Shown here one piece after another: positions 2,014 to 64,000 of a stretch of DNA of 64,000 nucleotides. The notes below the pieces were generated by a model. The model had not been told where the DNA came from. It searched no databases and saw only the letters and a list, made by a program, of their open reading frames with translations. A program made the translations under genes and the position numbers. Source of the stretch: Escherichia coli. GTDB taxonomy: Bacteria; Pseudomonadota; Gammaproteobacteria; Enterobacterales; Enterobacteriaceae. How positions within the stretch are numbered: the first letter of the stretch is position 1; every line of letters starts with the position of its first letter. The DNA is taken from the NCBI RefSeq assembly GCF_041886205.1, contig NZ_CP169029.1. One strand, 5' to 3'.

Positions 2014-2020
2014 GTAACAT

Positions 2021-2097: not shown

Positions 2098-2127
2098 AGT
2101 ACTCATGCCGCATCCGGCATGAGTACT
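2098..2127. repeat. perfect 13-bp-stem palindrome between convergent allE and glxK
   Basis: agtactcatgccg-catc-cggcatgagtact read directly. Confidence 0.6.
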
Positions 2128-2171
2128 GCGCTCTTATGCGATATACATCGCATCCACTTTAAAGGTAAGAG

Positions 2172-3317: not shown

Positions 3318-3338
3318 TATCAATCCTTTTTCAACAAA

Positions 3339-4640: not shown

Positions 4641-4696
4641 AAACACACCTTAACCGGAGAATGCCCGCCGCAAGGACGGGCATTGCAGGGGCCAGA

Positions 4697-6058: not shown

Positions 6059-6118
6059 AACAAACTCCTTGTAAAATACAGATTGGTTTTTTAACTCAAT
6101 GTTCAATATCGGGATTAA

Positions 6119-7573: not shown

Positions 7574-7741
7574 AAATCCCTCTTAATTTCACGTATCGAA
7601 TAACGTTGTTTTAATCTAGCTATGAGGAACAAATAAAATAAAAATATTATTTTTAATACTGAAGCAACATCTTTGGCTGCTTTCTTTTTTAATATTGCTG
7701 GCCGATTCATTTTCTGATATCAGCCATTTTTATTGCGGGTA

Positions 7742-8620: not shown

Positions 8621-8719
8621 AATTAACCTCTTTTAAATTTCGCTTTTCCTGAATTCAGACAACACGATCCCCTGCCAACTTAGCGGCCTAAAAAAGCATT
8701 GTCTGAATAGCGTTACGTT

Positions 8720-9496: not shown

Positions 9497-9508
9497 TATT
9501 TATCTCCC

Positions 9509-11290: not shown

Positions 11291-11379
11291 TTTATTCCTA
11301 CCTCTATTTATTGGAAAATTTTTCCAACTTTCAAATTTTGTCAAAAAAACCCGCTCCGCAGAGCGGGATGCGACAGACA

Positions 11380-12195
11380 TTATGGATGTGCTTTCAGTCC
11401 CAACGCCGTGCTGATATCGCGGGCGGTGTCTCTTACCAGCTCACCCTGACTGACAAAACGATCTTCTGTCAGTCTTGATGAAGGCCCGGAGATGGAGATA
11501 GCGGCAACAACACTACCGACATCATCGTAAATTGCTGAAGCTATGCAATTCAGACCTACAACATGCTCTTCTTTATCTACGGTATAGCCCAGTTCACGCG
11601 CTTGTTCCAGGTCCTTCAGCAAGGTGGGCATATCCACAAGCGTAGTTGGCGTAAACTGCTGCAAACCGGTTTGCAGAATGATGCTCATCAACTCCTCTTC
11701 CGCCAGCGGATAAAGCAGCGCTTTGCCCGCACCGGAAGCATGCAGTGGCAGACGACTGCCCAGTGGCGCACACATCCTGACCATCGATTTACACTCTAAC
11801 TGACCAATTAATACCGCTTCATTGCCGTTACGGATCGCGACATTGACCGTTTCGCCGGAAAGTAACATCAGGCGGCGCATAAACGGCCCGGCGACGGAGA
11901 GGACATCGCGGTTATGGATGTACGCCGCACCGACGTTAAAGACACCTAATCCTATATGCCACCAGCCTAATTGACTGTCCTGATAGACAAAATCCGCTGC
12001 CTGTAAAACCTTCAGCAAGCGAAAGGTCGTGGAGAGCGGCAAATCCAGATTGAGAGAAATATCGCTAACCGACGAACTTCCCCCACTTTTTTCCAAATAT
12101 TGCAGAATCGCAATTCCCCGCTCTAACGCCTGTGCGCCCTTCTGTACCACAGGCTCCGCCTGTCCTGGCCTGCCGCGCCGTCTAACTTCCGTCAT
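11380..12195 (-). CDS. allR: IclR-family repressor of allantoin/glyoxylate genes
   Basis: 271-aa ORF with IclR HTH and effector domain. Confidence 0.9.
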
Positions 12196-12272
12196 ACCTA
12201 CGTTAACTCCGACCTACAAGTGAGCATAAACAATGAACAATTAGTTTATCTTATGCAAGTCGGTTGCAGGCG

Positions 12273-12755
12273 TCACGCAAAACAGAGTTCCTGTTCAGGA
12301 ATACTTTCAACATCACAGTTGTCACTGCCGCCGCGATCGATGGTCAGAAAATCGGTGACGCGCTGCCAGGCGAAAAGTGGGTGATGCCAGACGTTACGAT
12401 GGTAATTCACTCCCTGTTCGCCGTTGGTGATAAACGCCCGCAGCGTTGACAGGTCTGGTTTGTCGTCACCTAACGCCACGACCACCACAAACACCTCACC
12501 TTTCATCGGGATAAAGGCCTGAGTACCCAGCGGATGACGTTCGAGTTCGTGAATGGTCAGCGGCAGATTCGCCGGTTGCGCGCGGTTAATGCTGATAAGC
12601 GTACGGTCTTGCTCAAGAATCTCAACCAGCGCCAAATCGTGGTAACGCTCCACCAGGCCATTGTTAATATGGAAAAAATCCCGTTGCTGCGTTTCGATTA
12701 CGTCGCCATAAGCACTAAAGGCTTCCTGACTTAACGGTAATACCTGAAGTTTCAT
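12273..12755 (-). CDS. allA: ureidoglycolate lyase
   Basis: 160-aa ORF, synteny. Confidence 0.9.
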
Positions 12756-12984
12756 CTTTTTGTCCTTGTAACATAATTCCGTTCAACCACCGCCGACCGG
12801 TCAGCTTGGTTTCAATAACAGGCAATCTAAAACCTTAAGAGAACAACATCAATACAAAAGTTGGAATATTTTTCCAAAACTAGATTTAGTCCACAAATTG
12901 AACAGGGTTATCATGTAAAAATACTGATAAATCAGAGGATAAGAAAATCACGCAACTTGCGGATTTAAAAGGGGATACCTGAAG

Positions 12985-13911
12985 ATGTTCGATCCAGAAA
13001 CCTTGCGGACTTTCATTGCGGTTGCTGAAACAGGAAGTTTTTCAAAAGCGGCAGAACGATTATGTAAAACCACGGCGACGATCAGTTATCGCATTAAACT
13101 TCTGGAAGAGAATACCGGAGTAGCGCTGTTTTTCCGTACGACTCGCAGCGTGACGTTGACAGCGGCTGGCGAGCATCTACTTTCCCAGGCCAGAGACTGG
13201 CTGAGCTGGCTGGAAAGTATGCCAAGCGAGCTGCAACAGGTGAATGATGGCGTGGAACGCCAGGTGAATATTGTCATCAACAACCTGCTCTACAACCCCC
13301 AGGCCGTCGCCCAGTTGCTGGCGTGGCTGAATGAGCGTTACCCCTTTACCCAGTTTCACATCTCCCGACAAATCTATATGGGCGTCTGGGACTCGCTATT
13401 GTACGAAGGTTTTTCGCTGGCTATCGGCGTCACGGGAACTGAGGCGCTGGCAAATACCTTTAGTCTTGATCCCTTAGGATCGGTGCAATGGCGCTTTGTC
13501 ATGGCGGCGGATCATCCGCTGGCGAACGTTGAAGAGCCGCTAACAGAAGCGCAGTTGCGGCGCTTTCCGGCGGTCAATATTGAAGACAGCGCCCGCACCT
13601 TAACCAAACGCGTCGCCTGGCGATTGCCAGGGCAAAAAGAGATTATTGTTCCCGATATGGAAACGAAAATCGCCGCCCATCTGGCGGGCGTTGGCATTGG
13701 TTTTTTGCCAAAATCGCTTTGCCAGTCAATGATCGATAATCAACAACTGGTCAGCCGGGTAATCCCAACGATGCGCCCTCCTTCGCCATTGAGTCTGGCA
13801 TGGCGCAAATTTGGCAGCGGCAAAGCGGTAGAAGATATTGTGACCTTGTTTACCCAGCGCAGGCCGGAAATCAGCGGATTTTTAGAAATTTTCGGCAACC
13901 CACGCAGTTAA
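12985..13911 (+). CDS. allS: LysR-family activator of allD operon
   Basis: 308-aa ORF with LysR HTH N-terminus, divergent from allA. Confidence 0.9.
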
Positions 13912-13964
13912 AAATCAAGTTTCCTTGCGCGTTGGCGCGTAAAATAGCGCGCAAGCTGATTTGA

Positions 13965-15074
<1,110 letters not shown>

Positions 15075-15137
15075 TGGGCGGTATTCTGAAACGGCGATTG
15101 TCGTGAGAACAGAATGGTTGCACCAGAATACAGATAT

Positions 15138-15167
15138 AAAAAAACCGACATGACAGTCGGTTTTTTT
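15138..15167. terminator. bidirectional rho-independent terminator (A7-ccgac-atgaca-gtcgg-T7)
   Basis: 5-bp GC-rich stem flanked by A-run and T-run, 64 bp downstream of selU stop. Confidence 0.6.
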
Positions 15168-15226
15168 ATTTTTTCCGCCCAAGACTTGGTGGTTCCGGGC
15201 AGAAATGAAACAGTCCTCATCTAGCA
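15138..15226 (-). ncRNA. putative antisense sRNA (candidate type I antitoxin); ends approximate
   Basis: Minus-strand TTGAAT-17bp-TATAAT promoter (15232-15260), predicted transcript contains UGCUAGAUGAGGACUG complementary to 15397-15412, ends at the bidirectional terminator. Confidence 0.35.
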
Positions 15227-15231
15227 AGTGA

Positions 15232-15260
15232 ATTATAAGTCAGGATGCCTCCATATTCAA
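15232..15260 (-). promoter_or_regulatory. candidate sigma70 promoter for the putative sRNA
   Basis: -35 ttgaat (15255-15260), 17-bp spacer, perfect -10 tataat (15232-15237) on the minus strand. Confidence 0.35.
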
Positions 15261-15376
15261 ACAGCTATGTTGGCGATACAATCCCGACGCTAGTAGTGAT
15301 ACTGCCTCAAGGGATTACCGCAGTGCGGAAAAGTACTTTTAAGTCCTGGTCAGGATACAGGTGGTGCTGATTCTGG

Positions 15377-15385
15377 TGCTCTAAT
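15377..15385 (+). promoter_or_regulatory. candidate extended -10 promoter for the small-peptide mRNA
   Basis: tgctctaat resembles TGnTATAAT; -35 is poor. Confidence 0.25.
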
Positions 15386-15485
15386 TTGGAGAGAGGCAGT
15401 CCTCATCTAGCACATGAAGAAAATCATAGTTACAGGCAACGTAAGGGTAAGCTGTGATTGTCTTTCTCCCTTAAGGGAGCAACGG

Positions 15486-15569
15486 ATGAAAACTTTTCTC
15501 GATAAAGTTCTCATCGTTCTTAAGGCGCTAATCGCGCTGCTGGAACTGATCCGTCAGTTTATTGAATAA
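15486..15569 (+). CDS. 27-aa hydrophobic peptide MKTFLDKVLIVLKALIALLELIRQFIE, DinQ/TisB-like candidate type I toxin
   Basis: ATG preceded by aagggag SD 7 nt upstream; single amphipathic helix; own hairpin terminator; in-frame upstream ATG at 15414 would give 51 aa. Confidence 0.5.
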   Translation: MKTFLDKVLIVLKALIALLELIRQFIE

Positions 15570-15587
15570 CTGAGGAAACGTAGCTAA

Positions 15588-15615
15588 GGCCGAAGGTTTA
15601 CCACCTTCGGTCTTT
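15588..15615 (+). terminator. hairpin terminator after the small ORF
   Basis: ccgaaggt-ttacc-accttcgg stem-loop followed by TCTTT. Confidence 0.5.
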
Positions 15616-15670
15616 AAAAAAACCGACATGACAGTTGGTTTCATATTTATTGCCAAAATGCACACTGTTC

Positions 15671-15771
<101 letters not shown>

Positions 15772-15786
15772 ATCTAACACCTGTCA

Positions 15787-18201
15787 TCACCCCGCAAACT
15801 GCCTGAACAGCGCCTTACCCTTAACCAGTCTCGCGCCCAGCCAGCCGCCGAAAAGCGACAGCAGCAGCGCACCGCTGCACGGCAGAACAATCCACAATCG
15901 CCAGTCTGGCTCCCACGGGAAATCAAACACTTTCGCCTGCAACACTGCCAGTGCCGTTTCCGCACCAATTGCGGCCACCAGGCCGGAAACAAACCCAAGC
16001 ATGGCGAACTCACACCACAATGTCGTGCGCAGCAGTTTTTTCCCCGCACCGAGTGTGCGCCATACCACCAGCTCCTGATGACGCTGGCGCATTCCCACCT
16101 GCACCTGTGCCAGCAACAGCAACATACCGCAGGCGGTGACCAGCACCACCATCACCTCCAGCGCCCGACTTACCTGCTCCAGCACCTGACCGACCTGTTT
16201 TAAAATCGCGCCAATATCTAACAGGCTAATGGTCGGGAACTGGCGGTTGAGTTGCGTCAACATGCCGTTGCCATTCTCCCAGCGGAAACTGGTAAGCCAG
16301 CTCTGCGGTTGCCCGTCTAATGCCCCTTCCGGGAAAATAAAATAGAAATTAGGCCGCAGACTTTCCCAGTCCACTTTGCGCAGGCTGGTCACTTTAGCGC
16401 GGAACTCCTGGGTATCGCCCATAAAAGTCACGGTATCACCGAGGGCAACGTTTAAGCGTTTCGCCAGCCCCTCTTCCATCGACACTTCATCGGCTTTTGG
16501 CGGCCAGTTACCGGCGACAATCGGATTATGATCGGGCCGCGTATTTTGCCAGGTAAGATTGAGTTCGCGATTAAGCGCCTCATCTTCATTACCTTCTGTC
16601 GGCTTATCGTTAATCGCCGTCAGCCGCGCCCGCACTACCGGATAAAATGATTCCGGGACTATATGATGTTCCGCGAGGAACGCTTTTAGCGGTGCTACCT
16701 GTTCTGTGGCGATGTTAATTAAAAAGTAGTTCGGGCTTTCTGGCGGTAGCTGCTGCTGCCAGCGGTCGAGCAGATCGCCACGCAATACCAGCAACAGCGC
16801 CAGCAGCATAAAGGAGAGCGAAAATGCCGAAAGCTGACTTAACGTTGACCACGGCTGACGTAACAGGCGGCTAACCGCCAGGCGCAGAGGCAGCGATTTC
16901 AGCGTCATGCGGCGAAGTACATTCAGCAGCATCCAGCCCAGCACACCGCACAGCAAAGCCAGTACTACCGCGCCAGCCAGCACCGCCCAAAGCAGCATGC
17001 TGCCACCCATTAATCCGGCGAGCAGCAGCACAACCACCACACTGACAATCGGCAGATAAAACTTCAGCGGCCAGACGTTCGCTACCACATCATTACGTAA
17101 TACGCGTAAAGGCTGCGTTGCCAGCAACAAGCGATATGGTCGTAGCCCCACCAGCAGCGAGATGACCGTCATGGTGCCCAGCGCCCACAACCACGGCCAG
17201 AGGCTGGCTGGCGGTAGTGCAGCAGGCAGAACGGGCTTGAGCAGCACCATCAACACGTTTTCGAACAACAGGCCTATGGCCCCACCGGTAACGGCTGAAA
17301 GCGCCAGCACCATCAACCACTGACCGACGATTAGCTTACGCAGTTGCGCTCGCCCTGCCCCCAGCGTTTTGAGGATCGCCACCAGATCGTAGCGACTGCG
17401 ACAGTAATGATTCATCGCCACCGCCACCGCTGCCACTGCCAGCAGCAAGGTCAGAAGCGCCGAAAGCAGCAGGAACTGCTGCGAGCGTTCCATCGATCGC
17501 CCCAGCGCGCCTTCGTCCTGTTCCAGACCGTACCAGCGTTGTTCGGGTTTAAGCTGGGGTAACAACCATTTCTCATAGCCGTCGAGCTGGTTCTCGTTGC
17601 CGCCGAATTTATAACGCCAGGTGACCCGACTCCCCGGCTGCACGGCTCCGGTTTTATCGACATCCGCCAGATTCATCATCAGACGCGGAGCCATCTGGAA
17701 GGGGTTAAAACCAGAATCCGGTTCCTGAATCACTTCTCCGGCAATCCGCAAGGTGGCATCGCCCACGTCGATGGTGTCGCCTGTTTTCAGGTTAAGCAGC
17801 GCCATCAGGCGTGGGGCCAGCAATACGCTGCCCGCCTGCGGTTTCAGGCCAGGGGGATTAGTTTGCAGATCGCCATACATCGGGTAGATATCATCCACCG
17901 CTTTGACGTTCGCCAGCTGCGGTGTGTCGCCTGCAAATGTCATGGTGGCGAAAGTCAGCTGCTTGCCGACTTTCAGGCCGCGCTTTTGCGCTTCCTCCAG
18001 CCACGCTTGCGGCACTTCGCGCGAACTGCGCAACGCCCGATCGCCCGCCATAAACTCACGGCTTTGCTGGCTTAAGCCCTTCTCCATGCGATCGCTGATA
18101 TTGCCCAGCGCCAGCACGCAGGCCACCGCCAGGCTTAGCGCCAGCCAGACAATTAATAGCGACGGCGAACGCCATTCGCGCCAGAACCAACGTGCAATCA
18201 T
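15787..18201 (-). CDS. ybbP: ABC transporter permease (FtsX-like)
   Basis: 804-aa ORF with two FtsX-type membrane domains, overlaps ybbA by 4 bp. Confidence 0.88.
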   Translation of the reverse strand: MIARWFWREWRSPSLLIVWLALSLAVACVLALGNISDRMEKGLSQQSREFMAGDRALRSSREVPQAWLEEAQKRGLKVGKQLTFATMTFAGDTPQLANVKAVDDIYPMYGDLQTNPPGLKPQAGSVLLAPRLMALLNLKTGDTIDVGDATLRIAGEVIQEPDSGFNPFQMAPRLMMNLADVDKTGAVQPGSRVTWRYKFGGNENQLDGYEKWLLPQLKPEQRWYGLEQDEGALGRSMERSQQFLLLSALLTLLLAVAAVAVAMNHYCRSRYDLVAILKTLGAGRAQLRKLIVGQWLMVLALSAVTGGAIGLLFENVLMVLLKPVLPAALPPASLWPWLWALGTMTVISLLVGLRPYRLLLATQPLRVLRNDVVANVWPLKFYLPIVSVVVVLLLAGLMGGSMLLWAVLAGAVVLALLCGVLGWMLLNVLRRMTLKSLPLRLAVSRLLRQPWSTLSQLSAFSLSFMLLALLLVLRGDLLDRWQQQLPPESPNYFLINIATEQVAPLKAFLAEHHIVPESFYPVVRARLTAINDKPTEGNEDEALNRELNLTWQNTRPDHNPIVAGNWPPKADEVSMEEGLAKRLNVALGDTVTFMGDTQEFRAKVTSLRKVDWESLRPNFYFIFPEGALDGQPQSWLTSFRWENGNGMLTQLNRQFPTISLLDIGAILKQVGQVLEQVSRALEVMVVLVTACGMLLLLAQVQVGMRQRHQELVVWRTLGAGKKLLRTTLWCEFAMLGFVSGLVAAIGAETALAVLQAKVFDFPWEPDWRLWIVLPCSGALLLSLFGGWLGARLVKGKALFRQFAG

Positions 18202-18884
18202 GCTTCCTCCTGCAACTGCCCGTTCACCAGCCGTAAGCAGCGGTCGCAGCGTGCCGCCAGTTGCAGGTCGTGGGTCACCATAATCAACGTGGTGCCATGT
18301 TCACGGTTGAGGGAAAACAGCAGGTCGGCAATTTTATCGCCCGTCTGGCGGTCAAGGTTGCCGGTGGGTTCGTCGGCAAACAGCACATCAGGTCGACCAT
18401 TAAAGGCTCGTGCCAGCGCCACTCGTTGCTGTTCACCGCCGGAAAGCTGTGCCGGAAGATGATCCAGACGTTTACCCAGCCCTAACTGTTCGAGCAACGC
18501 TTTCGCCCCGTTACGACTTTCCGCGCTACTCTCACCGCGCAGCAGAGCCGGAAGCTCGACGTTTTCCAGCGCGTTAAGGGTAGGAATTAACATAAATGAC
18601 TGAAAAACAAAGCCGACGTGCTTCGCGCGCAACTTTGCCCGCGCTTCTTCGTCCATATTATGTAGCGGTTGTCCCACCAGACTCACTTCGCCACTGCTGC
18701 CGTCATCAAGCCCGGCGAGGATCGCCAGCAAGGTTGACTTACCCGATCCCGACTCGCCCACCAGTGCGATGGTCTCGCCACGTTTGACAACCAGCTCAAC
18801 TCCGGTGAGGATGGAGAGTTCATGCTCCCCCTGACCGACGGACTTCTTAAGATGATGAACTTCAACAATGTTTTCCGCTGGCAT
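18198..18884 (-). CDS. ybbA: ABC transporter ATP-binding protein
   Basis: Walker A GESGSGKST, signature LSGGEQQRVALARA, 228 aa. Confidence 0.9.
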   Translation of the reverse strand: MPAENIVEVHHLKKSVGQGEHELSILTGVELVVKRGETIALVGESGSGKSTLLAILAGLDDGSSGEVSLVGQPLHNMDEEARAKLRAKHVGFVFQSFMLIPTLNALENVELPALLRGESSAESRNGAKALLEQLGLGKRLDHLPAQLSGGEQQRVALARAFNGRPDVLFADEPTGNLDRQTGDKIADLLFSLNREHGTTLIMVTHDLQLAARCDRCLRLVNGQLQEEA

Positions 18885-19478
18885 TTGCCCTTCCTGTTCC
18901 TGGTCCTGTTAACCTTCCGTGCCGCCGCAGCGGACACGTTATTGATTCTGGGTGATAGCCTGAGCGCCGGGTATCGAATGTCTGCCAGCGCGGCCTGGCC
19001 TGCCTTGTTGAATGATAAGTGGCAGAGTAAAACGTCGGTAGTTAATGCCAGCATCAGCGGCGACACCTCGCAACAAGGACTGGCGCGCCTTCCGGCTCTG
19101 CTGAAACAGCATCAGCCGCGTTGGGTGCTGGTTGAACTGGGCGGCAATGACGGTTTGCGTGGTTTTCAGCCACAGCAAACCGAGCAAACGCTGCGCCAGA
19201 TTTTGCAGGATGTCAAAGCCGCCAACGCTGAACCATTGTTAATGCAAATACGTCTGCCTGCAAACTATGGTCGCCGTTATAATGAAGCCTTTAGCGCCAT
19301 TTACCCCAAACTCGCCAAAGAGTTTGATGTTCCGCTGCTGCCCTTTTTTATGGAAGAGGTCTACCTCAAGCCACAATGGATGCAGGATGACGGTATTCAT
19401 CCCAACCGCGACGCCCAGCCGTTTATTGCCGACTGGATGGCGAAGCAGTTGCAGCCTTTAGTAAATCATGACTCATAA
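18852..19478 (+). CDS. tesA: acyl-CoA thioesterase I / lysophospholipase L1 (SGNH hydrolase)
   Basis: MMNFNNVFRW... signal peptide then GDSLSAG motif; 208 aa from internal Met. Confidence 0.9.
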   Translation: MMNFNNVFRWHLPFLFLVLLTFRAAAADTLLILGDSLSAGYRMSASAAWPALLNDKWQSKTSVVNASISGDTSQQGLARLPALLKQHQPRWVLVELGGNDGLRGFQPQQTEQTLRQILQDVKAANAEPLLMQIRLPANYGRRYNEAFSAIYPKLAKEFDVPLLPFFMEEVYLKPQWMQDDGIHPNRDAQPFIADWMAKQLQPLVNHDS

Positions 19479-20277
19479 AGCAACGGAGATCCTGACAGGT
19501 AAAGTTATGCAAAAATCGGTCTTAATTACCGGATGTTCCAGTGGAATTGGCCTGGAAAGCGCGCTCGAATTAAAACGCCAGGGTTTTCATGTGCTGGCAG
19601 GTTGCCGAAAACCGGATGATGTTGAGCGTATGAACAACATGGGATTTACCGGCGTGTTGATCGATCTGGATTCACCAGAAAGTGTTGATCGCGCAGCAGA
19701 CGAGGTGATCGCCCTGACCGATAATTGTCTGTATGGGATCTTTAACAATGCCGGATTCGGCATGTATGGCCCCCTTTCCACCATCAGCCGTGCGCAGATG
19801 GAACAGCAGTTTTCCGCCAACTTTTTCGGCGCACACCAGCTCACCATGCGCCTGTTACCCGCGATGTTACCGCACGGTGAAGGGCGTATTGTGATGACAT
19901 CATCGGTGATGGGATTAATCTCCACGCCGGGTCGTGGCGCTTACGCGGCCAGTAAATATGCGCTGGAGGCGTGGTCAGACGCGCTGCGCATGGAGCTACG
20001 CCACAGCGGAATTAAAGTCAGCCTGATCGAACCCGGTCCCATTCGTACTCGCTTCACCGACAACGTCAACCAGACGCAAAGTGATAAACCAGTCGAAAAT
20101 CCCGGCATCGCCGCCCGCTTTACGTTGGGACCGGAAGCGGTGGTGGACAAAGTACGCCATGCTTTTATTAGCGAGAAGCCGAAGATGCGCTATCCGGTAA
20201 CGCTGGTGACCTGGGCAGTAATGGTGCTTAAGCGCCTGCTGCCGGGGCGCGCGATGGACAAAATATTGCAGGGGTGA
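19468..20277 (+). CDS. ybbO: short-chain dehydrogenase/reductase
   Basis: TGCSSGIG NAD(P)-binding motif, YxxxK, 269 aa. Confidence 0.88.
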   Translation: MTHKATEILTGKVMQKSVLITGCSSGIGLESALELKRQGFHVLAGCRKPDDVERMNNMGFTGVLIDLDSPESVDRAADEVIALTDNCLYGIFNNAGFGMYGPLSTISRAQMEQQFSANFFGAHQLTMRLLPAMLPHGEGRIVMTSSVMGLISTPGRGAYAASKYALEAWSDALRMELRHSGIKVSLIEPGPIRTRFTDNVNQTQSDKPVENPGIAARFTLGPEAVVDKVRHAFISEKPKMRYPVTLVTWAVMVLKRLLPGRAMDKILQG

Positions 20278-29749: not shown

Positions 29750-30038
<289 letters not shown>

Positions 30039-30536: not shown

Positions 30537-31331
30537 ATGGATCTGTTGTACCGGGTAAAAACGCTTTGGGCCGCGCTGCGCGGTAATCATTACACCTGGC
30601 CTGCCATCGATATCACCCTCCCCGGCAATCGCCATTTTCATCTGATTGGCAGTATTCATATGGGTAGCCACGATATGGCTCCCCTGCCCACCCGTTTGCT
30701 CAAAAAGCTCAAAAACGCCGATGCGCTGATCGTCGAGGCGGATGTTTCCACCAGTGATACGCCTTTTGCTAATTTGCCTGCCTGCGAGGCGCTGGAAGAG
30801 CGCATTAGCGAGGAGCAACTCCAAAACCTGCAGCACATTAGCCAGGAGATGGGCATTTCTCCCTCGCTCTTTTCTACCCAACCGCTGTGGCAAATCGCGA
30901 TGGTTCTTCAGGCGACGCAGGCACAAAAACTGGGGCTGCGGGCAGAATACGGTATCGATTACCAGCTATTGCAGGCGGCGAAGCAACAACATAAACCCGT
31001 GATTGAACTGGAAGGGGCTGAAAACCAGATTGCCATGTTGCTCCAGCTCCCTGACAAAGGACTGGCGCTGCTGGACGATACGCTGACCCACTGGCATACC
31101 AACGCACGGTTGCTGCAACAAATGATGAGCTGGTGGCTGAATGCACCGCCGCAAAATAATGATATAACGCTGCCCAATACGTTCAGTCAGTCGCTGTACG
31201 ATGTGCTGATGCATCAGCGAAATCTCGCCTGGCGGGATAAATTACGCGCCATGCCGCCGGGGCGATATGTGGTCGCGGTCGGTGCACTACACCTGTATGG
31301 AGAAGGGAATTTGCCGCAAATGTTGCGCTAA
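30537..31331 (+). CDS. ybaP: TraB-family protein
   Basis: 264-aa ORF, synteny. Confidence 0.85.
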   Translation: MDLLYRVKTLWAALRGNHYTWPAIDITLPGNRHFHLIGSIHMGSHDMAPLPTRLLKKLKNADALIVEADVSTSDTPFANLPACEALEERISEEQLQNLQHISQEMGISPSLFSTQPLWQIAMVLQATQAQKLGLRAEYGIDYQLLQAAKQQHKPVIELEGAENQIAMLLQLPDKGLALLDDTLTHWHTNARLLQQMMSWWLNAPPQNNDITLPNTFSQSLYDVLMHQRNLAWRDKLRAMPPGRYVVAVGALHLYGEGNLPQMLR

Positions 31332-31413
31332 AAAAATGGCCAATATCGCTATTGGCCCGTCAAAGAGGAATTTCATTTTTTTATTATTATGCCGTCACTT
31401 TAAGCGACGGTGT
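31331..31413 (-). ncRNA. chiX: sRNA ChiX (MicM/SroB)
   Basis: Minus-strand sequence acaccgtcgcttaaagtgacggcataataataaaaaaatgaaattcctctttgacgggccaatagcgatattggcc + U-run matches ChiX from memory; terminator hairpin ggccaata/tattggcc. Confidence 0.85.
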
Positions 31414-37088: not shown

Positions 37089-37173
37089 GTAGGCATGATA
37101 AGACGCGCCAGCGTCGCATCAGGCATCGAGAGCCAAATGCCAGATGCGGCGTGAACGCCTTATCTGGCCTACG
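37089..37173. repeat. BIME (REP pair)
   Basis: gtaggcatgataagacgcg...catcaggca and tgccagatgcggcgtgaacgccttatctggcctac. Confidence 0.75.
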
Positions 37174-44488: not shown

Positions 44489-46420
44489 TCAAATGGGGCG
44501 GATACTTTCTTCATCCAGCTCCGCATCGAAAAACCGACGCAGGGTCTGAATATTATTATCCGCAATAATGGACTCGCGCGCCTGCGCAAGTTTTTCTTCG
44601 TATATCGCCTGACGCCACTCCAGCGGCGTACGCACCGCGGGATTATCATCTTCAACGATAGTCAGTTCAACCGTTGAACCTTTTAACATGCTCAACGCTT
44701 CAGCCAGTTTTTGCTGTGCACCGCGGTTGTTCAAATGCCGCTGAGAGGAGCGCAAATGCAGACATACTGCGTTGTCGCTCTCCTCTTTCCAGGCATTTAA
44801 CGCCACCTGTTCGACCAGTTTTGGTAGCGAAAGTTGGCTCACCTGTGCCGCCCACGGGTCGCGCTCAATGGCTTCTGCCGCCAGCTTCGCCGCCAGTTCC
44901 GGCGTTTTTTCATGTTCCAGCGCTTTTTTCAGCGCCTTCGGCGTGGCGACCACTTCTTTTTGCTGCATCACTGGAGTGGTAGCCTTCCAGCGATACGCTT
45001 CTTTTTTGGCTGGCGCTTTTTCCAGCGCCGATGGCACCGGACGCGCCTGAACGCGATCGGTGACCGAAGCCAGTCTTTCCAGCGCAGCGTTATTCACCGG
45101 CCGCGCGCGGGTAGCGGCTGCCGGTTCACTCTTTTTTGCTTTGGTTGCTCCCTGCACGCGCTGCAACTGCTGGCGCGCCGCCAGCACCTGGCTGGTGGTT
45201 TCCGGGAGCGGTACAGTCGGTGCCTGCTGCGGCGCTGATTGCGGTTGCGGCGGCACCTGGGTTGGCGTCATTACTGCCGTTGGCGCGACGGGCGCAAAGG
45301 ACTGGCGTGGCACTTCTGGCTCAGGCAGAGGCATACGTGGATGGAACGCCAGCGCGCGCAGCAGCGTCATCTCAACGCCCATGCGGCGGTCCGGCGCATA
45401 CGGTAATTCTTTGCGACCAATCAACAGCGTCTGATAGTAAAGCTGAATATCCGTCGGCGGTATGGTGCGCGCCAGTTCACGCATCCGCAGCTCAATGGCG
45501 GCCATGTCGTTGCCAAGTGCAGCAGGCGAAAGTTGTACCATCGCAATACGATGCAACAGGCCGAGCATTTCCACCAGCAACGCTTCCCACTCGATACCAC
45601 GGGCAGCGGCTTCATTAATCAGCGCCATTACGCGCTCGCCGTTGGCCTCGACCATCGCTTCAACCAGCGACAGCGCCTGATCGTCATCAAGCGTACCCAG
45701 CATCGCACTGACTGCCTGGGTTGAAACCTGGCCGTCACCGCTGGCAATCGCCTGGTCGGTCAGACTTAAGGCATCTCGCAGGCTGCCTTCAGCGGCGCGC
45801 GCCAGCAATTGCAACGCCCGCGGCTCGTGAGCGATATGTTCTTCGTTGAGGATGTGCTCAAGTTGATGGCGAATTTGCTCGACATCCAGCGCCTTGAGAT
45901 GAAATTGCAAACAGCGCGACAAAATCGTCACCGGCAATTTCTGTGGATCGGTCGTCGCCAGCAGAAACTTAACGTGCTCCGGCGGCTCTTCAAGGGTTTT
46001 TAACAGTGCGTTAAAGCTGTGGCGCGACAGCATATGCACTTCGTCGATCAGATAAACTTTGAAACGACCACGCGCCGGAGCGTACTGGACGTTATCCAGC
46101 AGGTCGCGGGTATCTTCAACTTTGGTGCGCGAGGCGGCGTCGATTTCAATCAGATCGACAAAGCGCCCCTGCTCGATTTCACGACAGTTATCGCACACGC
46201 CGCACGGCGTCGCGGTAATGCCGGTTTCGCAGTTTAGCCCCTTCGCCAGCAGTCGGGCGATAGAGGTTTTTCCGACGCCACGGGTGCCGGAAAAAAGATA
46301 AGCATGATGAATACGCCCTAACGACAAGCCGTTCGCCAGTGCGGTCAGCACATGTTCCTGGCCGACGACGTCAGCAAAGGTTTGTGGGCGCCATTTTCGG
46401 GCTAAGACCTGATAACTCAT
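44489..46420 (-). CDS. dnaX: DNA polymerase III tau/gamma subunits
   Basis: 643-aa ORF with AAA+ Walker A GTRGVGKT. Confidence 0.95.
   Translation of the reverse strand: MSYQVLARKWRPQTFADVVGQEHVLTALANGLSLGRIHHAYLFSGTRGVGKTSIARLLAKGLNCETGITATPCGVCDNCREIEQGRFVDLIEIDAASRTKVEDTRDLLDNVQYAPARGRFKVYLIDEVHMLSRHSFNALLKTLEEPPEHVKFLLATTDPQKLPVTILSRCLQFHLKALDVEQIRHQLEHILNEEHIAHEPRALQLLARAAEGSLRDALSLTDQAIASGDGQVSTQAVSAMLGTLDDDQALSLVEAMVEANGERVMALINEAAARGIEWEALLVEMLGLLHRIAMVQLSPAALGNDMAAIELRMRELARTIPPTDIQLYYQTLLIGRKELPYAPDRRMGVEMTLLRALAFHPRMPLPEPEVPRQSFAPVAPTAVMTPTQVPPQPQSAPQQAPTVPLPETTSQVLAARQQLQRVQGATKAKKSEPAAATRARPVNNAALERLASVTDRVQARPVPSALEKAPAKKEAYRWKATTPVMQQKEVVATPKALKKALEHEKTPELAAKLAAEAIERDPWAAQVSQLSLPKLVEQVALNAWKEESDNAVCLHLRSSQRHLNNRGAQQKLAEALSMLKGSTVELTIVEDDNPAVRTPLEWRQAIYEEKLAQARESIIADNNIQTLRRFFDAELDEESIRPI
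45129..45135 (-). promoter_or_regulatory. dnaX programmed -1 frameshift site (A AAA AAG)
   Basis: Plus-strand cttttttt = minus-strand AAAAAAG; -1 frame reads GAG then UGA. Confidence 0.8.
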
Positions 46421-54105: not shown

Positions 54106-57258
<3,153 letters not shown>

Positions 57259-57277
57259 TACAACGTGTAATCACTAA

Positions 57278-57299
57278 GGCCGCGTAAGCGGCCTTTTTT
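57278..57299 (+). terminator. rho-independent terminator after acrB
   Basis: ggccgc-gtaa-gcggcc followed by T6. Confidence 0.7.
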
Positions 57300-57447
57300 A
57301 TGCATAACCTACGAACATTAAGGAGTAATTGAACCACCAACTCAGGATCTCATACGAAAACCAGTATTAACCTCGCATAAAATTCATAAAAAATACTGAT
57401 TGTTAGTTAATTTATATTAAGTAGCGCTAATAGGTAATGACTCCAAC

Positions 57448-57951
57448 TTATTGATAGTGTTTTATGTTCAGATAATGCCCGATGACTTTGTCATGCAGCT
57501 CCACCGATTTTGAGAACGACAGCGACTTCCGTCCCAGCCGTGCCAGGTGCTGTCTCAGATTCAGGTTATGCCGCTCAATTCGCTGCGTATATCGCTTGCT
57601 GATTACGTGCAGCTTTCCCTTCAGGCGGGATTCATACAGCGGCCAGCCATCCGTCATCCATATCACCACGTCAAAGGGTGACAGCAGGCTCATAAGACGC
57701 CCCAGCGTCGCCATAGTGCGTTCACCGAATACGTGCGCAACAACCGTCTTCCGGAGCCTGTCATACGCGTAAAACAGCCAGCGCTGGCGCGATTTAGCCC
57801 CGACATAGCCCCACTGTTCGTCCATTTCCGCGCAGACGATGACGTCACTGCCCGGCTGTATGCGCGAGGTTACCGACTGCGGCCTGAGTTTTTTAAATGG
57901 CGGAAAATCGTGTTGAGGCCAACGCCCATAATGCGGGCGGTTGCCCGGCAT
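57448..57951 (-). CDS. insB: IS1 InsB (expressed as InsAB' by -1 frameshift at A6C, 57888-57894)
   Basis: 167-aa ORF overlapping insA; AAAAAAC motif on the minus strand. Confidence 0.9.
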
Positions 57952-58145
57952 CCAACGCCATTCATGGCCATATCAATGATTTTCTGGTGCGTACCGGGTT
58001 GAGAAGCGGTGTAAGTGAACTGCAGTTGCCATGTTTTACGGCAGTGAGAGCAGAGATAGCGCTGATGTCCGGCGGTGCTTTTGCCGTTACGCACCACCCC
58101 GTCAGTAGCTGAACAGGAGGGACAGCTGATAGAAACAGAAGCCAC
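57870..58145 (-). CDS. insA: IS1 InsA
   Basis: 91-aa [46 protein letters not shown]... Confidence 0.92.
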
Positions 58146-58580
58146 TGGAGCACCTCAAAAACACCATCATACACTAAATCAGTAAGTTGGCAGCATCACC
58201 GCGCTAATAGATTTAATAATCCATAATCATTTAGAGGCTATTCTTAATTATTTGCGGTAATTCTTTATTCATTCCTCGGTTATTACGTCATATTCAGAGC
58301 AATCCTGGTATTAGTGTCACCAATGTCATCTGGCGATAATCCTGAAATGTTATGAACTGTTCGAGCAAACTGCTTTTACCTACTGCGGGTTGGTGCTAGT
58401 ATGAAAAAGTGAGTCCTGTCCTGCTTCCTTCCTAATTGTAATTTTTCGTAATAATGCGATGAAAACCTGCAAAGAGTGGCTTATAGTTAAGCTAACAAAC
58501 GAGAGGGCAAGTCTAGGTCAGTAAGTTTTTTCCATCCCGAAAGGTGTCCGTTAGTTCAACCACTAAGAAGGGGACGCGTT

Positions 58581-58955
58581 ATGGATGAATACTCACCCAA
58601 AAGACATGATATCGCACAGCTTAAGTTTCTCTGTGAAACCCTGTATCATGACTGCCTTGCAAACCTTGAAGAAAGCAATCATGGCTGGGTAAACGACCCA
58701 ACCTCGGCGATCAACCTCCAGTTGAATGAACTGATTGAGCATATTGCGACCTTCGCACTTAATTACAAAATTAAGTATAATGAAGACAATAAGCTCATTG
58801 AGCAGATCGACGAATATCTGGATGACACCTTTATGTTGTTCAGTAGTTATGGTATTAATATGCAGGATCTTCAGAAATGGCGGAAGTCAGGTAATCGACT
58901 ATTCCGTTGTTTTGTCAATGCGACGAAAGAGAATCCTGCGAGTTTATCTTGTTAG
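58581..58955 (+). CDS. tomB: Hha toxicity modulator TomB
   Basis: 124-aa [28 protein letters not shown]..., directly upstream of hha. Confidence 0.9.
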
Positions 58956-58980
58956 AATTATTACAACCATGGGTAGAAGT

Positions 58981-59199
58981 ATGTCCGAAAAACCTTTAAC
59001 GAAAACCGATTATTTAATGCGTTTACGTCGTTGCCAGACAATTGACACGCTGGAGCGTGTTATCGAGAAAAATAAATACGAATTATCAGATAATGAACTG
59101 GCGGTATTTTACTCAGCCGCAGATCACCGCCTCGCCGAATTGACCATGAATAAACTGTACGACAAGATCCCTTCCTCAGTATGGAAATTTATTCGCTAA
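58981..59199 (+). CDS. hha: haemolysin expression modulator Hha
   Basis: [39 protein letters not shown]...; 72 aa from internal Met of the longer track ORF. Confidence 0.92.
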
Positions 59200-59370
59200 T
59201 AAATAATTCGCTTTCGGAGCTATAACCGGCTGTTTATTAAGAATTTTATACTTTTTCGCCATGAAGACATACCCTATGTGATCTTTATCACACAGATGTA
59301 ATGGGAACGTTCTCTTCACTGACTTTTCGTCTTACTGTGTTGCCGCATTTTCAGCAACCAGAGGTCAGTA

Positions 59371-59958
59371 ATGAGCACAGAAAAAGAAAAGATGATTGCT
59401 GGTGAGTTGTATCGCTCGGCAGATGAGGCGTTATCTCGCGATCGCCTGCGCGCTCGTCAGCTTATTCACCGATACAATCATTCCCTGGCGGAAGAGCACA
59501 CATTACGCCAGCAAATTCTCGCTGATCTATTCGGTCAGGTGACAGAGGCTTATATTGAGCCAACGTTTCGCTGTGACTATGGCTATAACATCTTTCTCGG
59601 CAATAATTTTTTCGCCAACTTCGATTGCGTGATGCTTGATGTCTGCCCTATTCGCATCGGTGATAACTGTATGCTGGCACCAGGCGTTCATATCTACACG
59701 GCAACACATCCCATCGACCCTGTAGCACGTAATAGCGGTGCTGAACTGGGGAAACCCTTCACCATCGGTAATAACGTCTGGATTGGCGGACGCGCGGTCA
59801 TTAACCCTGGTGTGACCATTGGTGATAACGTCGTGGTAGCCTCAGGTGCAGTTGTCACAAAAGATGTCCCGGACAACGTTGTCGTGGGCGGTAATCCAGC
59901 CAGAATAATTAAAAAATTGCAATCGGTTTTTCGCAACTGTTATGCAAAATTGTGGTAA
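59371..59958 (+). CDS. maa: maltose O-acetyltransferase (hexapeptide repeat)
   Basis: [21 protein letters not shown]...; ORF is 195 aa here. Confidence 0.88.
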
Positions 59959-60037
59959 ATCTGTTACTTTCCCTCTACTATTCCCACGTTAAAATAGGGT
60001 GTTCCCTAGAAAGTTGCAGATACCACGAAGGCAAACG

Positions 60038-60508
60038 ATGACCGAAATACAACGCCTGCTGACCGAAACGATTGAGTCTCTGAATACCCGCGAAAAACGC
60101 GATAACAAACCCCGCTTTAGTATCAGTTTTATCCGTAAACATCCGGGGCTGTTTATCGGTATGTATGTTGCTTTTTTTGCCACCCTGGCGGTGATGTTGC
60201 AGTCCGAAACGCTTTCAGGCTCTGTCTGGTTACTGGTTGTATTATTTATCCTGCTTAATGGTTTCTTCTTTTTCGATGTCTACCCACGCTACCGCTATGA
60301 AGATATCGACGTGCTGGATTTCCGCGTTTGCTATAACGGCGAATGGTACAACACGCGCTTTGTACCTGCCGCGCTGGTTGAAGCCATCTTGAACTCTCCG
60401 CGTGTCGCGGATGTTCAAAAAGAACAACTGCAAAAAATGATCGTCCGTAAAGGTGAATTGTCTTTTTACGATATTTTTACCCTTGCTCGCGCCGAATCAA
60501 CATCTTAA
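60038..60508 (+). CDS. ylaC: inner membrane protein YlaC
   Basis: [27 protein letters not shown]...; 156 aa from internal Met. Confidence 0.85.
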
Positions 60509-60665
60509 GTTAGAGTTACATACCAGGCGTAAAGCTCTGCGCCTGGTCAAATGACAACGTTCGTTTCCACCCATCACTTCATGAAATACCGGTTCTACCT
60601 CCTTATCTCCTGCCAGCCTTTTTCCACAATCGGATATACTTTCTCTACACTGTGTTAATAAGGAT

Positions 60666-62222
60666 ATGCTGGTGAGAACACGACATCTGGTCGGCCTTAT
60701 TTCGGGAGTACTGATTCTTTCAGTATTGCTGCCTGTCGGCTTAAGCCTCTGGCTGGCCCATCAGCAGGTAGAAACATCATTTATTGAAGAGCTGAATACC
60801 TATTCCTCCCGCGTCGCTATTCGGGCCAATAAGGTGGCGATACAAGGGAAAGATGCGCTGCAAGAGCTGGAAAGATGGCAAGGCGCTGCCTGTAGCGAAG
60901 CCCATCTCATGGAAATGCGTCGGGTATCTTACAGTTATCGCTATATTCAGGAAGTGGTTTATATCGATAACAACGTTCCCCAGTGTTCGTCTCTGGAGCA
61001 TGAAAGCCCGCCCGATACCTTCCCCGAGCCAGGTAAAATTTCGAAAGATGGTTATCGTGTCTGGTTAACATCGCATAACGATTTAGGCATTATCCGTTAC
61101 ATGGTCGCCATGGGAACGGCACATTATGTCGTCATGATCGACCCCGCTTCCTTTATTGATGTCATTCCCTATAGCTCATGGCAAATTGATGCCGCCATTA
61201 TTGGCAATGCCCATAACGTTGTGATAACCAGCAGCGATGAAATTGCTCAGGGAATTATTACCAGGCTACAAAAAACACCCGGTGAGCATATCGAAAATAA
61301 TGGAATCATTTACGATATCCTGCCCTTCCCGGAGATGAATATTTCGATCATCACCTGGGCTTCAACGAAAATGTTGCAGAAAGGCTGGCATTGGCAAGTC
61401 TTTATTTGGTTACCGCTCGGGTTGGTGATTAGCCTGCTGGCAGCGATGTTTGTGCTGCGTATTTTGCGCCGTATCCAGTCACCGCATCATCGGCTGCAGG
61501 ATGCTATCGAAAATCGTGATATTTGCGTGCACTATCAGCCAATTGTCTCCTTAGCCAATGGCAAAATTGTCGGTGCTGAGGCACTGGCGCGCTGGCCGCA
61601 GACAGACGGTAGTTGGTTGTCACCAGATAGTTTTATTCCGCTGGCACAGCAAACGGGCCTTTCTGAGCCATTGACGCTACTGATTATAAGAAGCGTCTTT
61701 GAAGATATGGGCGACTGGCTGCGTCAGCATCCACAGCAGCATATTTCGATCAATCTTGAATCCACCGTGCTCACCTCGGAAAAAATCCCGCAATTGCTGC
61801 GTGAAATGATCAATCACTATCAGGTTAATCCCAGACAGATCGCGCTTGAACTCACTGAACGCGAGTTTGCCGATCCGAAGACAAGCGCCCCGATAATTTC
61901 TCGCTACCGGGAGGCGGGCCATGAAATTTATCTTGATGATTTTGGTACGGGATATTCAAGTTTAAGTTATTTACAGGATCTGGATGTCGACATTCTGAAG
62001 ATCGATAAATCTTTCGTTGATGCGCTGGAATATAAAAATGTCACGCCGCATATCATCGAAATGGCAAAAACACTGAAACTGAAAATGGTAGCGGAGGGAA
62101 TCGAAACCAGTAAACAAGAAGAGTGGCTACGCCAGCATGGCGTGCACTACGGTCAGGGCTGGCTCTACAGCAAGGCATTACCGAAAGAAGATTTCTTACG
62201 CTGGGCCGAGCAACATTTGTGA
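60666..62222 (+). CDS. pdeB: c-di-GMP phosphodiesterase (CSS-motif sensor plus EAL domain)
   Basis: N-terminal TM and periplasmic domain, C-terminal EAL domain (EGIET, DDFGTG). Confidence 0.88.
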   Translation: MLVRTRHLVGLISGVLILSVLLPVGLSLWLAHQQVETSFIEELNTYSSRVAIRANKVAIQGKDALQELERWQGAACSEAHLMEMRRVSYSYRYIQEVVYIDNNVPQCSSLEHESPPDTFPEPGKISKDGYRVWLTSHNDLGIIRYMVAMGTAHYVVMIDPASFIDVIPYSSWQIDAAIIGNAHNVVITSSDEIAQGIITRLQKTPGEHIENNGIIYDILPFPEMNISIITWASTKMLQKGWHWQVFIWLPLGLVISLLAAMFVLRILRRIQSPHHRLQDAIENRDICVHYQPIVSLANGKIVGAEALARWPQTDGSWLSPDSFIPLAQQTGLSEPLTLLIIRSVFEDMGDWLRQHPQQHISINLESTVLTSEKIPQLLREMINHYQVNPRQIALELTEREFADPKTSAPIISRYREAGHEIYLDDFGTGYSSLSYLQDLDVDILKIDKSFVDALEYKNVTPHIIEMAKTLKLKMVAEGIETSKQEEWLRQHGVHYGQGWLYSKALPKEDFLRWAEQHL

Positions 62223-62262
62223 ATTTTTGGGCTGACGGCACGCCGCACAGCCCGTCCGCTAC

Positions 62263-62616
62263 CTATTCGTCGATGATTGACTCGAATCCGCCATAGATCA
62301 TTCGCTTGCCGTCAAACGGCATGGACTCGCCGAACTCTTTCATCCGTGGGTCCGACATCATCTTTTGATTAGCAGCGTCGCGGACCTCTTTTGAAGGGTA
62401 TTCAATCCAGCTAAAGACAACCTCTTCATTCTCTTCCGCTTTCACCGCCATACGAAAATCGGTCACTTTGCCATCCGGTACATCGCTGGCCCAGCATTCG
62501 ACAATACGAAGCGCGCCAAACTCTTTAAACAATGGCGCAGCCTTAGCGGCCATTTCCCGATAGGCATCCTTTTTATCGGCAGGAACGGCAACCACAAAAC
62601 CATCAACATACTTCAT
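62263..62616 (-). CDS. ybaA: DUF1428 protein
   Basis: 117-aa ORF MKYVDGFVVAVPADKK... Confidence 0.85.
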   Translation of the reverse strand: MKYVDGFVVAVPADKKDAYREMAAKAAPLFKEFGALRIVECWASDVPDGKVTDFRMAVKAEENEEVVFSWIEYPSKEVRDAANQKMMSDPRMKEFGESMPFDGKRMIYGGFESIIDE

Positions 62617-62726
62617 CAGACATACCTCCGAAGCGTACTGCGCAGCCAGACAATTCTTGCGACGTCAGTTGTGGTTAAAGTTTAGCCATGTTGGGATTTT
62701 TTGACGAAACGGTGGGAGGCAGAAAT

Positions 62727-62840
62727 GGGTGGGGGCCCTGCCAGCTACATCCCGGCACACGCGTCATCTGCCTTGGCTGCTTCCTTCCGGACCTGACCTG
62801 GTAAACAGAGTAGCGTTGCGGGAGAACCAACAGAGCCCCC
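62727..62840 (-). ncRNA. ffs: 4.5S RNA (SRP RNA)
   Basis: Reverse complement reads GGGGGCUCUGUUGGUUCUCCCGCAACGC...GGCAGGGCCCCCACCC, 114 nt, matching 4.5S RNA from memory. Confidence 0.95.
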
Positions 62841-62916
62841 ATTGAGAGCGTTGAGAACCAACGCGCAGGCGCATTATCACTGCTGCCCCGGCTAATTGCA
62901 ACCCATCGCGTGCCAG

Positions 62917-63306
62917 ATGCTGGTTTCTTGCGCAATGCGACTTCACTCGGGCGTTTTTCCAGATTATGCTGAAAAATTACCTCAGGAAGAAAAGATGGAA
63001 AAAGAAGATTCATTTCCCCAACGCGTCTGGCAAATCGTCGCCGCTATTCCCGAAGGCTATGTCACCACTTACGGTGATGTGGCGAAACTGGCGGGATCGC
63101 CCCGCGCCGCGCGCCAGGTGGGCGGTGTGTTAAAGCGTCTCCCTGAAGGCAGCACCTTACCCTGGCACCGGGTGGTTAATCGCCACGGCACAATTTCGCT
63201 AACCGGACCGGATTTACAGCGTCAGCGACAGGCATTACTGGCAGAAGGTGTGATGGTATCGGGAAGCGGGCAAATCGACTTGCAGCGTTATCGCTGGAAC
63301 TACTAA
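62917..63306 (+). CDS. atl: alkyltransferase-like protein (MGMT-like DNA-binding domain)
   Basis: MLVSCAMRLHSG... with VWQIVAAIPEGYVTTYGDVA and PWHRVV motifs; 129 aa. Confidence 0.85.
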   Translation: MLVSCAMRLHSGVFPDYAEKLPQEEKMEKEDSFPQRVWQIVAAIPEGYVTTYGDVAKLAGSPRAARQVGGVLKRLPEGSTLPWHRVVNRHGTISLTGPDLQRQRQALLAEGVMVSGSGQIDLQRYRWNY

Positions 63307-63336
63307 CCCTCTCCGGGCGGAGAGGGTTAACGTCGC

Positions 63337-63909
63337 TTAATATTGCGTAGGAGCTGGAACTGCCGAAGACGGATTCACCTGAGTTGGTGAAGTCGAAGGT
63401 ACGGTAGTCGTTGCACCACCGCTGGCCTGAACCGGCACGGCGGTTTGCTGCACCGGCACCAATGTCAGGTCGGCTTTAGTTCCGCCCTTGTTGATCACCG
63501 GCTGAACGGTATCGGTAATAAATACCAGTTTGTCATTCACGGTAATCGCCGCACTCAACAGAATACGCGCGTTCGGCTGAACATCTGCCGGGTTAAATGG
63601 CAGAACAAAGCTGAATGGTGACTGTTTACCTTCGGTACGCACCGCTTTCTGCGCCAGCACTTTTGACGGTGCATCGGCTAACGACGCGTCAGAAAGTGTC
63701 ACGGTCAGCACAGCATCAGGCGGCAGTGCGACTTTCTGACGGATCCAGACGGTACCGGAGACATTCGGTTGCTGGATAGCAGGTTGTTGTGTTGCTGAAA
63801 TAGACGTATTTGCAGCCGGGGCTGGCGTCTGAATATCCGCGCTTTTATCTGCGCAAGCCGCCAACGCAATCGCAACCGCTAAACCACTGGCCATGTGCAC
63901 GAGTTTCAT
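63337..63909 (-). CDS. ybaY: lipoprotein YbaY
   Basis: 190-aa ORF with lipobox LAACA and Pro/Ala/Thr-rich tail. Confidence 0.85.
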   Translation of the reverse strand: MKLVHMASGLAVAIALAACADKSADIQTPAPAANTSISATQQPAIQQPNVSGTVWIRQKVALPPDAVLTVTLSDASLADAPSKVLAQKAVRTEGKQSPFSFVLPFNPADVQPNARILLSAAITVNDKLVFITDTVQPVINKGGTKADLTLVPVQQTAVPVQASGGATTTVPSTSPTQVNPSSAVPAPTQY

Positions 63910-64000
63910 TCATTTCTCCTTATTATCAATGCACCAGCGGGCTAACTTTCCTCGCCGGAAGAGTGGTTAACAAAATAGTAACGTCAATAAGTGTGGCACA

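Follow-up and report, generated by a model that had tools for sequence, protein, structure and literature searches.

IS1 has a loose target motif and a strong preference for AT-rich targets of 8 or 9 bp, with 9-bp duplications in about 78% of cases (PMC10359306), and H-NS helps its transposition into AT-rich DNA (PMC3000339). H-NS and IS1 are also the subject of Shiga et al. 2001, as listed among the references of PMC12428005, a source that covers the role of the A6C motif in IS1 frameshifting as well. Fusion promoters built on an outward-facing TTGGCA in the gene-facing end of IS1 have been documented (Prentki et al. 1986, together with the acrEF and blaTEM cases, as cited in PMC9330008), and IS1 or IS5 activates bgl from an AT-rich, H-NS-associated region upstream of its promoter (PMC9678765 and PMC8836124). 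A literature search returned no paper naming tomB, acrB and IS1 together. Here we report an intact IS1 on the minus strand between acrB and tomB in a 64-kb stretch of Escherichia coli DNA (hereafter the window, meaning the whole 64,000 nucleotides analysed), and show that the spacer between these two genes has received IS1 many times over.

The element itself is an already known, textbook IS1. Its length, its inverted repeats, insA and insB' with the A6C motif, the score of its transposase and a target duplication of the 8- or 9-bp kind all identify it as such (Table 1). The two inverted-repeat arms are 23 bp each and imperfect, matching at 18 of 23 positions, and the canonical IRL sequence, GGTGATGCTGCCAACTTACTGAT, is found a single time in the 64 kb, while 100 shuffles contain no copy. 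An in silico -1 shift at the A6C motif gives a 232-aa InsAB' protein that matches the NCBIfam model NF033558 (transpos_IS1) with 243.8 bits (E 1.4e-72; cutoff 100), and the N-terminal zinc-binding domain model NF050000 is matched as well. Abutting both ends of the element is a perfect 9-bp direct repeat, GCGCTAATA, for which the probability of arising by chance in exactly these positions is about 4^-9; a repeat finder gives its length as 10 nt, because IS1 happens to begin with G, the base that also follows the right copy of the duplication. From the acrB stop (ending at 57258) to IS1 there are 174 nt, and from the end of IS1 to the tomB ATG (58581) 380 nt. The first-pass annotation, which had described a complete IS1 with both inverted repeats, insA, insB, the A6C motif and a 9-bp duplication, and had given its distances to the acrB stop and the tomB start, is borne out on each of these points.

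In size, inverted repeats, insA/insB' organization with the A6C motif, IRL promoter and 9-bp duplication, the copy is like other members of the IS1B/IS1R-type isoform of E. coli and its plasmids. Its DNA is identical at 767 of 768 positions to many chromosomal and plasmid copies, which RefSeq labels "IS1-like element IS1B family", and it differs from the known IS1B-type copies by a single private base (A for G at IS1 position 648, window 57553, a synonymous change) and by its insertion site. At the protein level, InsAB' does not differ from the RefSeq IS1B-family transposase found in TUM1857, FCI23, HB37 and 36C_1_fosA3. Judged from the protein sequence, this identity to four independently inserted copies argues for an element that may well be active.

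Table 1. Features around the insertion and IS1 copies mapped in the acrB-tomB spacer. Rows from acrB to hha give positions in the window; rows labelled spacer IS1 give locus coordinates, in which the window IS1 begins at 1934 and the empty site has the tomB ATG at 2305, and their sign is the orientation of insA relative to tomB.
Feature	Position	Strand or sign	Details
acrB, upstream neighbour	54109..57258	+	1049-aa ORF; so annotated in all related genomes
acrB intrinsic terminator	57276..57301	+	8-bp stem, 4-nt loop, U-run; hairpin 57276-57295
Target-site duplication, left copy (GCGCTAATA)	57424..57432		Once in empty-site genomes
IS1	57433..58200	-	768 bp; IS1B-type isoform; 767/768 identity to widespread copies
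IRR terminal inverted repeat, acrB side	57433..57455	-	Inverted-repeat comparison
insB' frame	57951..57448	-	Expressed only as InsAB' fusion
A6C (AAAAAAC) -1 frameshift motif	57894..57888	-	IS1 positions 307-313
insA	58145..57870	-	91 aa, GTG start; repressor, also forms the transposase N terminus
IS1 promoter CTGCCA-16-TATGAT in IRL	58193..58166	-	Transcribes in the direction of acrB, not of tomB
IRL terminal inverted repeat, tomB side	58178..58200	-	Identical to canonical GGTGATGCTGCCAACTTACTGAT
Outward-facing -35-like TTGGCA in IRL	58187..58192	+	Motif scan
Target-site duplication, right copy (GCGCTAATA)	58201..58209		Once in empty-site genomes
Predicted tomB-hha sigma-70 promoter ATGAAA-17-TATAGT, intact	58459..58487	+	Consensus scan; hexamers in PMC3946193
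tomB, intact	58581..58955	+	124 aa; NF007948, 234 bits
hha, intact	58981..59199	+	72 aa; NF008191, 169 bits
Spacer IS1	~1863	+	TUM13773, with 384-bp adjacent deletion
Spacer IS1	1878	+	ET776, TUM9812, ES9
Spacer IS1	1898	+	14EC007
Spacer IS1	1928	-	CP52E, LHM10-1
Spacer IS1	1928	+	SEV1, SEV4
Spacer IS1	1931	-	TUM1857
Spacer IS1	1934	-	Window
Spacer IS1	1947	-	B19695, Nord58
Spacer IS1	1953	+	2 HS-C
Spacer IS1	1954	+	36C_1_fosA3
Spacer IS1	1955	+	KW21
Spacer IS1	1959	-	AVS0968
Spacer IS1	2025	+	HB37
Spacer IS1	2033	+	88COLEC
Spacer IS1	2035	+	TUM11356
Spacer IS1	2052	+	E02
Spacer IS1	2149	-	C236-04A
Spacer IS1	2181	+	GF4

The insertion is recent and simple. Compared with E. coli wlxctx60, the left flank (window 19934-57433) shows 3 mismatches plus 1 gap over 37.5 kb, the right flank (58201-64000) 0 differences over 5.8 kb; window 1-20000 is likewise 100% identical, and the IS1 with its duplication is the sole structural difference from this strain in 64 kb. 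An empty site with a single GCGCTAATA is present in wlxctx60, 6EVA and VE-T9. K-12 MG1655 has an acrB-tomB spacer of 545 bp that carries no IS1, which confirms what the first-pass annotation had stated of K-12. We regard the insertion as recent because its flanks are essentially identical to those of empty-site strains, and as a simple transposition with no later rearrangement, the course which that annotation had read from the intact duplication, because both flanks are collinear with those of wlxctx60.

Several other features of the window and its relatives were recorded alongside the insertion. The maa gene (59371-59958) encodes 195 aa (588 bp) here, in 6EVA and in wlxctx60 (WP_000102544.1), and is 552 bp long (183 aa) in K-12 and most of the other loci fetched; the C-terminal extension presumably stems from loss or shift of the usual stop codon. 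Three Rfam naRNA4 matches (REP/BIME-type, on both strands) lie at 29854-30032 and 37092-37169, two of which stand in tandem downstream of copA; these repeats also account for a spurious additional matching piece in one of the sequence comparisons. Matches that reach the Rfam gathering score comprise STnc480 with ES036 beside it, AgrB antisense RNA, sroB, the dnaX frameshift element and ffs (SRP RNA), at window positions 1951-2085, 15136-15224, 31330-31413, 45092-45156 and 62736-62832, and all are expected for the region; no tRNA genes were found in the 64-kb window. An additional IS3-family element, absent from the window, is present in the ybbP-allantoin region of LHM10-1 and CP52E (search hits H110 and H111), close relatives whose match to window 1-20000 spans 22.1 kb for a 20-kb query; this is a further IS difference within the lineage.

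The acrB-tomB spacer is a regional IS1 hot spot. We queried 5,426 complete E. coli genomes with this IS1 plus flanking DNA, once as found and once with the IS1 flipped, the flipped query being needed because matching pieces were joined on one strand only. IS1 lies near acrB-tomB in 30 of the 5,426 (11 with the query as found, 18 with the flipped query and 1 partial). An orientation bias was considered and rejected, since the result with same-orientation copies only was an artefact of how pieces were joined, and the flipped query added 18 genomes. We fetched 26 loci and mapped their insertions (Table 1). Within the 545-bp spacer there are IS1 copies in 22 genomes, at 17 distinct combinations of site and orientation with the window left out of the count; nine combinations, this time with the window included, fall within 32 bp (1928-1959), and both orientations are represented among them.

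The other spacer copies (those of CP52E/LHM10-1, SEV1/SEV4, TUM1857, B19695/Nord58, 2 HS-C, 36C_1_fosA3, KW21 and AVS0968, among others) have in common with the window's the element family and the AT-rich block in which they sit. The clustered ones lie 3-25 bp from the site used in the window, each with its own intact 8- or 9-bp duplication. Their duplications differ from that of the window, they occur in both orientations, and they represent variants 93-99.6% identical to the window's IS1; because duplications, orientations and variants all differ, the spacer insertions are independent events. Independence is clearest for CP52E and LHM10-1, which match the window at 100.0% (as reported) over 25 kb upstream and yet carry a different IS1 variant (8-9 nt differences) placed 6 bp to the left of the window site.

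If IS1 were spread uniformly, the 32 bp would be expected to hold about 0.4 copies over all genomes together, where 11 genomes have one, and the 545-bp spacer about 6.5, where 22 genomes do; this rough expectation derives from 59,359 chromosomal IS1 places at about 5 Mb per chromosome and ignores shared descent and purifying selection elsewhere. The sole control, the fsr-ybaL spacer (75% AT over 100 bp, ranking third in AT content among the window's blocks), yielded by the same method 4 genomes for one query orientation and none for the other, and all four of these IS1 copies lie about 1 kb away, with none inside the control spacer. The allele of the window, an IS1 at GCGCTAATA in either orientation, occurs in 0 of the 5,426 complete E. 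coli genomes, and its exact IS1 junction is absent from the metagenome contigs; the junction by which the allele can be recognized reads GTTGGCAGCATCACC followed by GCGCTAATAGATTT. The exact insertion site is new among the genomes searched, yet unremarkable, being one of many in a local hot spot.

The search also brought to light IS1 alleles that reach into tomB-hha or its upstream region. In TUM13773 (NZ_CP128912.1; locus 1863-2630) the IS1 runs in the direction of tomB and lacks a target duplication, and the spacer resumes 57 bp before the tomB ATG; this amounts to a 384-bp IS1-adjacent deletion in which the predicted promoter is lost, so that tomB-hha must be either silent or transcribed out of IS1 in this strain. 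In GF4 (NZ_CP172217.1; locus 2181-2948) the IS1, flanked by an 8-bp duplication, TAATAATG, lies against the predicted tomB -35, 132 bp from the ATG, and of the natural alleles this is the one most likely to change promoter activity. Elsewhere the genes themselves are broken: hha is interrupted by IS1 in 19213 and UID2309220009, and tomB in COL60J and FCI23 as mapped, and in two more genomes (hits H49 and H57) as deduced from match spans. Loss-of-function alleles of this toxin/antitoxin-like pair of H-NS co-regulators thus circulate in wild E. coli. Two further hits, going by match spans and annotations only, apparently have IS1 in maa (H41) and in the 3' end of acrB (H42).

In the window, IS1 landed in the most AT-rich 100-bp block of the entire 64 kb (top rank), and the spacer is 70-87% AT at locus 1870-2000, where 12 of the 18 events fall. 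A scan for the high-affinity H-NS motif TCGATAAATT that tolerated 2 mismatches at most gave no match in the hot spot and a single one close to the promoter, roughly what background would give, so that the motif lends no support to H-NS nucleation there; the H-NS flag of PMC3946193 covers the whole spacer, not the position of the IS1. IS1 entered the acrB-tomB spacer by ordinary transposition, in which the InsAB' transposase is made through a -1 frameshift at A6C and staggered cuts 9 bp apart in the target give rise to the GCGCTAATA duplication. The site was probably chosen through the preference of IS1 for AT-rich, H-NS-bound DNA, and the spacer, lying past a terminator and well ahead of the promoter that follows, should tolerate insertions. 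Target preference combined with tolerance is the best explanation for the location of the hot spot and for the presence of IS1 here.

RpoD holoenzyme binds the tomB-hha spacer in vitro, the spacer is flagged as H-NS-bound, and Shimada et al. 2014 give for it the hexamers ATGAAA-17-TATAGT, predicted within the bound fragment (PMC3946193). A consensus scan of the spacer found one plus-strand promoter-like site, 249 bp past the right copy of the duplication (Table 1). Peano et al. 2015 assign to tomB a sigmaS/RNA polymerase ChIP-seq peak at 479920-480115 (PMC4447067), which converts to about -183 to +12 of the tomB ATG, or roughly window 58398-58593; the conversion applies a 776-bp offset between two MG1655 versions, which we checked through the PdhR box (PMC7660256) in the window, and assumes that the older version was used in PMC4447067, the sole reading that places the peak beside tomB. 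In Salmonella, of three promoters predicted within 1 kb upstream of tomB, p922, the one nearest the gene, was alone in driving GFP, and deletion of p922 mimicked deletions of hha/tomB (PMC5133643).

These three lines agree in placing the tomB-hha promoter 190-250 bp downstream of the right end of IS1. The case is strong but not final, since the position in E. coli rests on a prediction, one ChIP peak and a reporter experiment in Salmonella, and our literature search found no mapped E. coli tomB transcription start site. The predicted -35 and -10 and the ChIP peak all lie downstream of IS1. The first-pass annotation had put the insertion in the region where the tomB-hha promoter should be, and had suggested that it could change hha/tomB expression while naming beforehand, as a finding that would speak against this, a promoter entirely downstream of 58209. 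That is where the predicted promoter, the peak and, by its proximal position, Salmonella p922 place it, and neither suggestion is supported. A PdhR box assigned to tomB (8/14 match, PMC7660256), which lies inside acrB at 56788-56804, was considered as a source of control and rejected as too weak and too distant. Outside IS1, the spacer is free of Rfam families, tRNAs and ORFs of at least 40 aa, and nothing is annotated in the acrB-tomB spacer of K-12 or wlxctx60. The DNA of tomB and hha is identical to that of wlxctx60.

The acrB terminator, with 6 G-C pairs in its stem (-18.8 kcal/mol, z -3.67), is untouched and lies upstream of IS1, and any read-through path from acrB is lengthened by 768 bp through an element that is polar in both orientations. 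Extra read-through from acrAB into tomB, another effect raised in the first-pass annotation, is unlikely: the terminator is intact, the path is longer, and the promoter of IS1, whose hexamers are those given for the K-12 insAB copies (PMC3946193), faces away from tomB. In the direction of tomB, the flank offers -10-like hexamers only at a spacing of 19 (TTTAAT) or 15 (TAGATT) from the outward TTGGCA, with none at 16-18. The locus resembles the IS1 fusion promoters cited in PMC9330008 in having this TTGGCA in the gene-facing end, but differs from them in its want of a -10 spaced by 16-18 bp, and in that the tomB start is 380 bp off with a promoter of its own in between. Because the -10-like hexamers are off-spacing, a fusion promoter towards tomB is possible but not favoured.

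We therefore consider it highly probable that this is an ordinary IS1 transposition into an AT-rich, insertion-tolerant hot spot, with consequences that are probably near neutral. Near neutrality would be expected with acrB and its terminator, tomB, hha and the core promoter all intact and with IS1 transcription running away from tomB. If tomB-hha were affected at all, it would be indirectly, through the splitting of the upstream AT-rich tract.

It is unlikely, by our estimate, that the insertion alters tomB-hha expression and has been kept by selection. Such a change could come about if IS1 parted the promoter from its upstream AT-rich, H-NS-bound DNA, as compared with bgl activation by IS1 or IS5, or if the outward TTGGCA of IRL gave rise to a weak fusion promoter. 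The first route is in keeping with the H-NS flag on the spacer (PMC3946193), and the bgl region is likewise AT-rich, H-NS-associated and upstream of a promoter; unlike bgl, however, tomB-hha is not silent, RNA polymerase binding its promoter both in vitro and in vivo. The second is in keeping with TTTAAT 19 bp downstream of TTGGCA and with the documented fusion promoters of IS1, but the -10-like hexamers stand at 15 or 19 rather than 16-18, and the core promoter is 249 bp away. IS1 hits in the spacer are far above those in the matched AT-rich control spacer, which would suit selection on expression, whereas the 32-bp cluster holds both orientations and sites only 1 bp apart (1953, 1954 and 1955), and mixed orientation with single-bp shifts is what target preference is expected to give, not the making of one particular promoter. 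Natural alleles in which IS1 disrupts tomB or hha, abuts the -35 or deletes the promoter suggest that some strains tolerate or favour a change in tomB-hha function; against this, the six insertions inside tomB and hha are close to the uniform expectation (roughly 7 for 594 bp). Since Hha silences jointly with H-NS, a changed Hha level, if the insertion did alter expression, would alter the silencing of acquired genes.

For the hot spot as a whole, positive selection on Hha/TomB levels is the main alternative, in that the density of insertions could reflect such selection and not target preference alone. That the recurrent spacer insertions, together with the alleles disrupting tomB, hha or their promoter, retune Hha and are favoured in some lineages strikes us as improbable. 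There is next to no likelihood that the IS1 is an assembly artefact (a misplaced repeat), a recombination or rearrangement breakpoint or the end of a composite transposon, for although IS1 is multi-copy (a median of about 11 places per genome) and such repeats commonly cause misassembly, the junctions fall exactly at the inverted-repeat ends around a perfect duplication of a sequence that is single in empty-site genomes, which is not something an assembler creates, the flanks are contiguous in wlxctx60, 6EVA and K-12, and the canonical IRL end occurs only once in the window, a composite transposon or rearrangement being rejected on the single IS1 and the collinearity of both flanks with relatives.

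Understood as an ordinary transposition into a tolerant hot spot, the insertion is of little importance in itself, both neighbouring operons and the tomB-hha core promoter being intact. As a strain marker it is clean: none of the 5,426 complete genomes, near-identical relatives included, has it. The AT-rich part of the acrB-tomB spacer has taken at least 17 independent IS1 events in public genomes in addition to that of the window, and this hot spot could be used as a natural test bed for setting IS1 target choice, as shaped by AT-richness and H-NS, against selection on Hha/TomB dosage. If the retuning of Hha were true, the IS1 of the window would be one instance of a recurrent, IS-mediated adjustment of xenogeneic silencing in E. 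coli.
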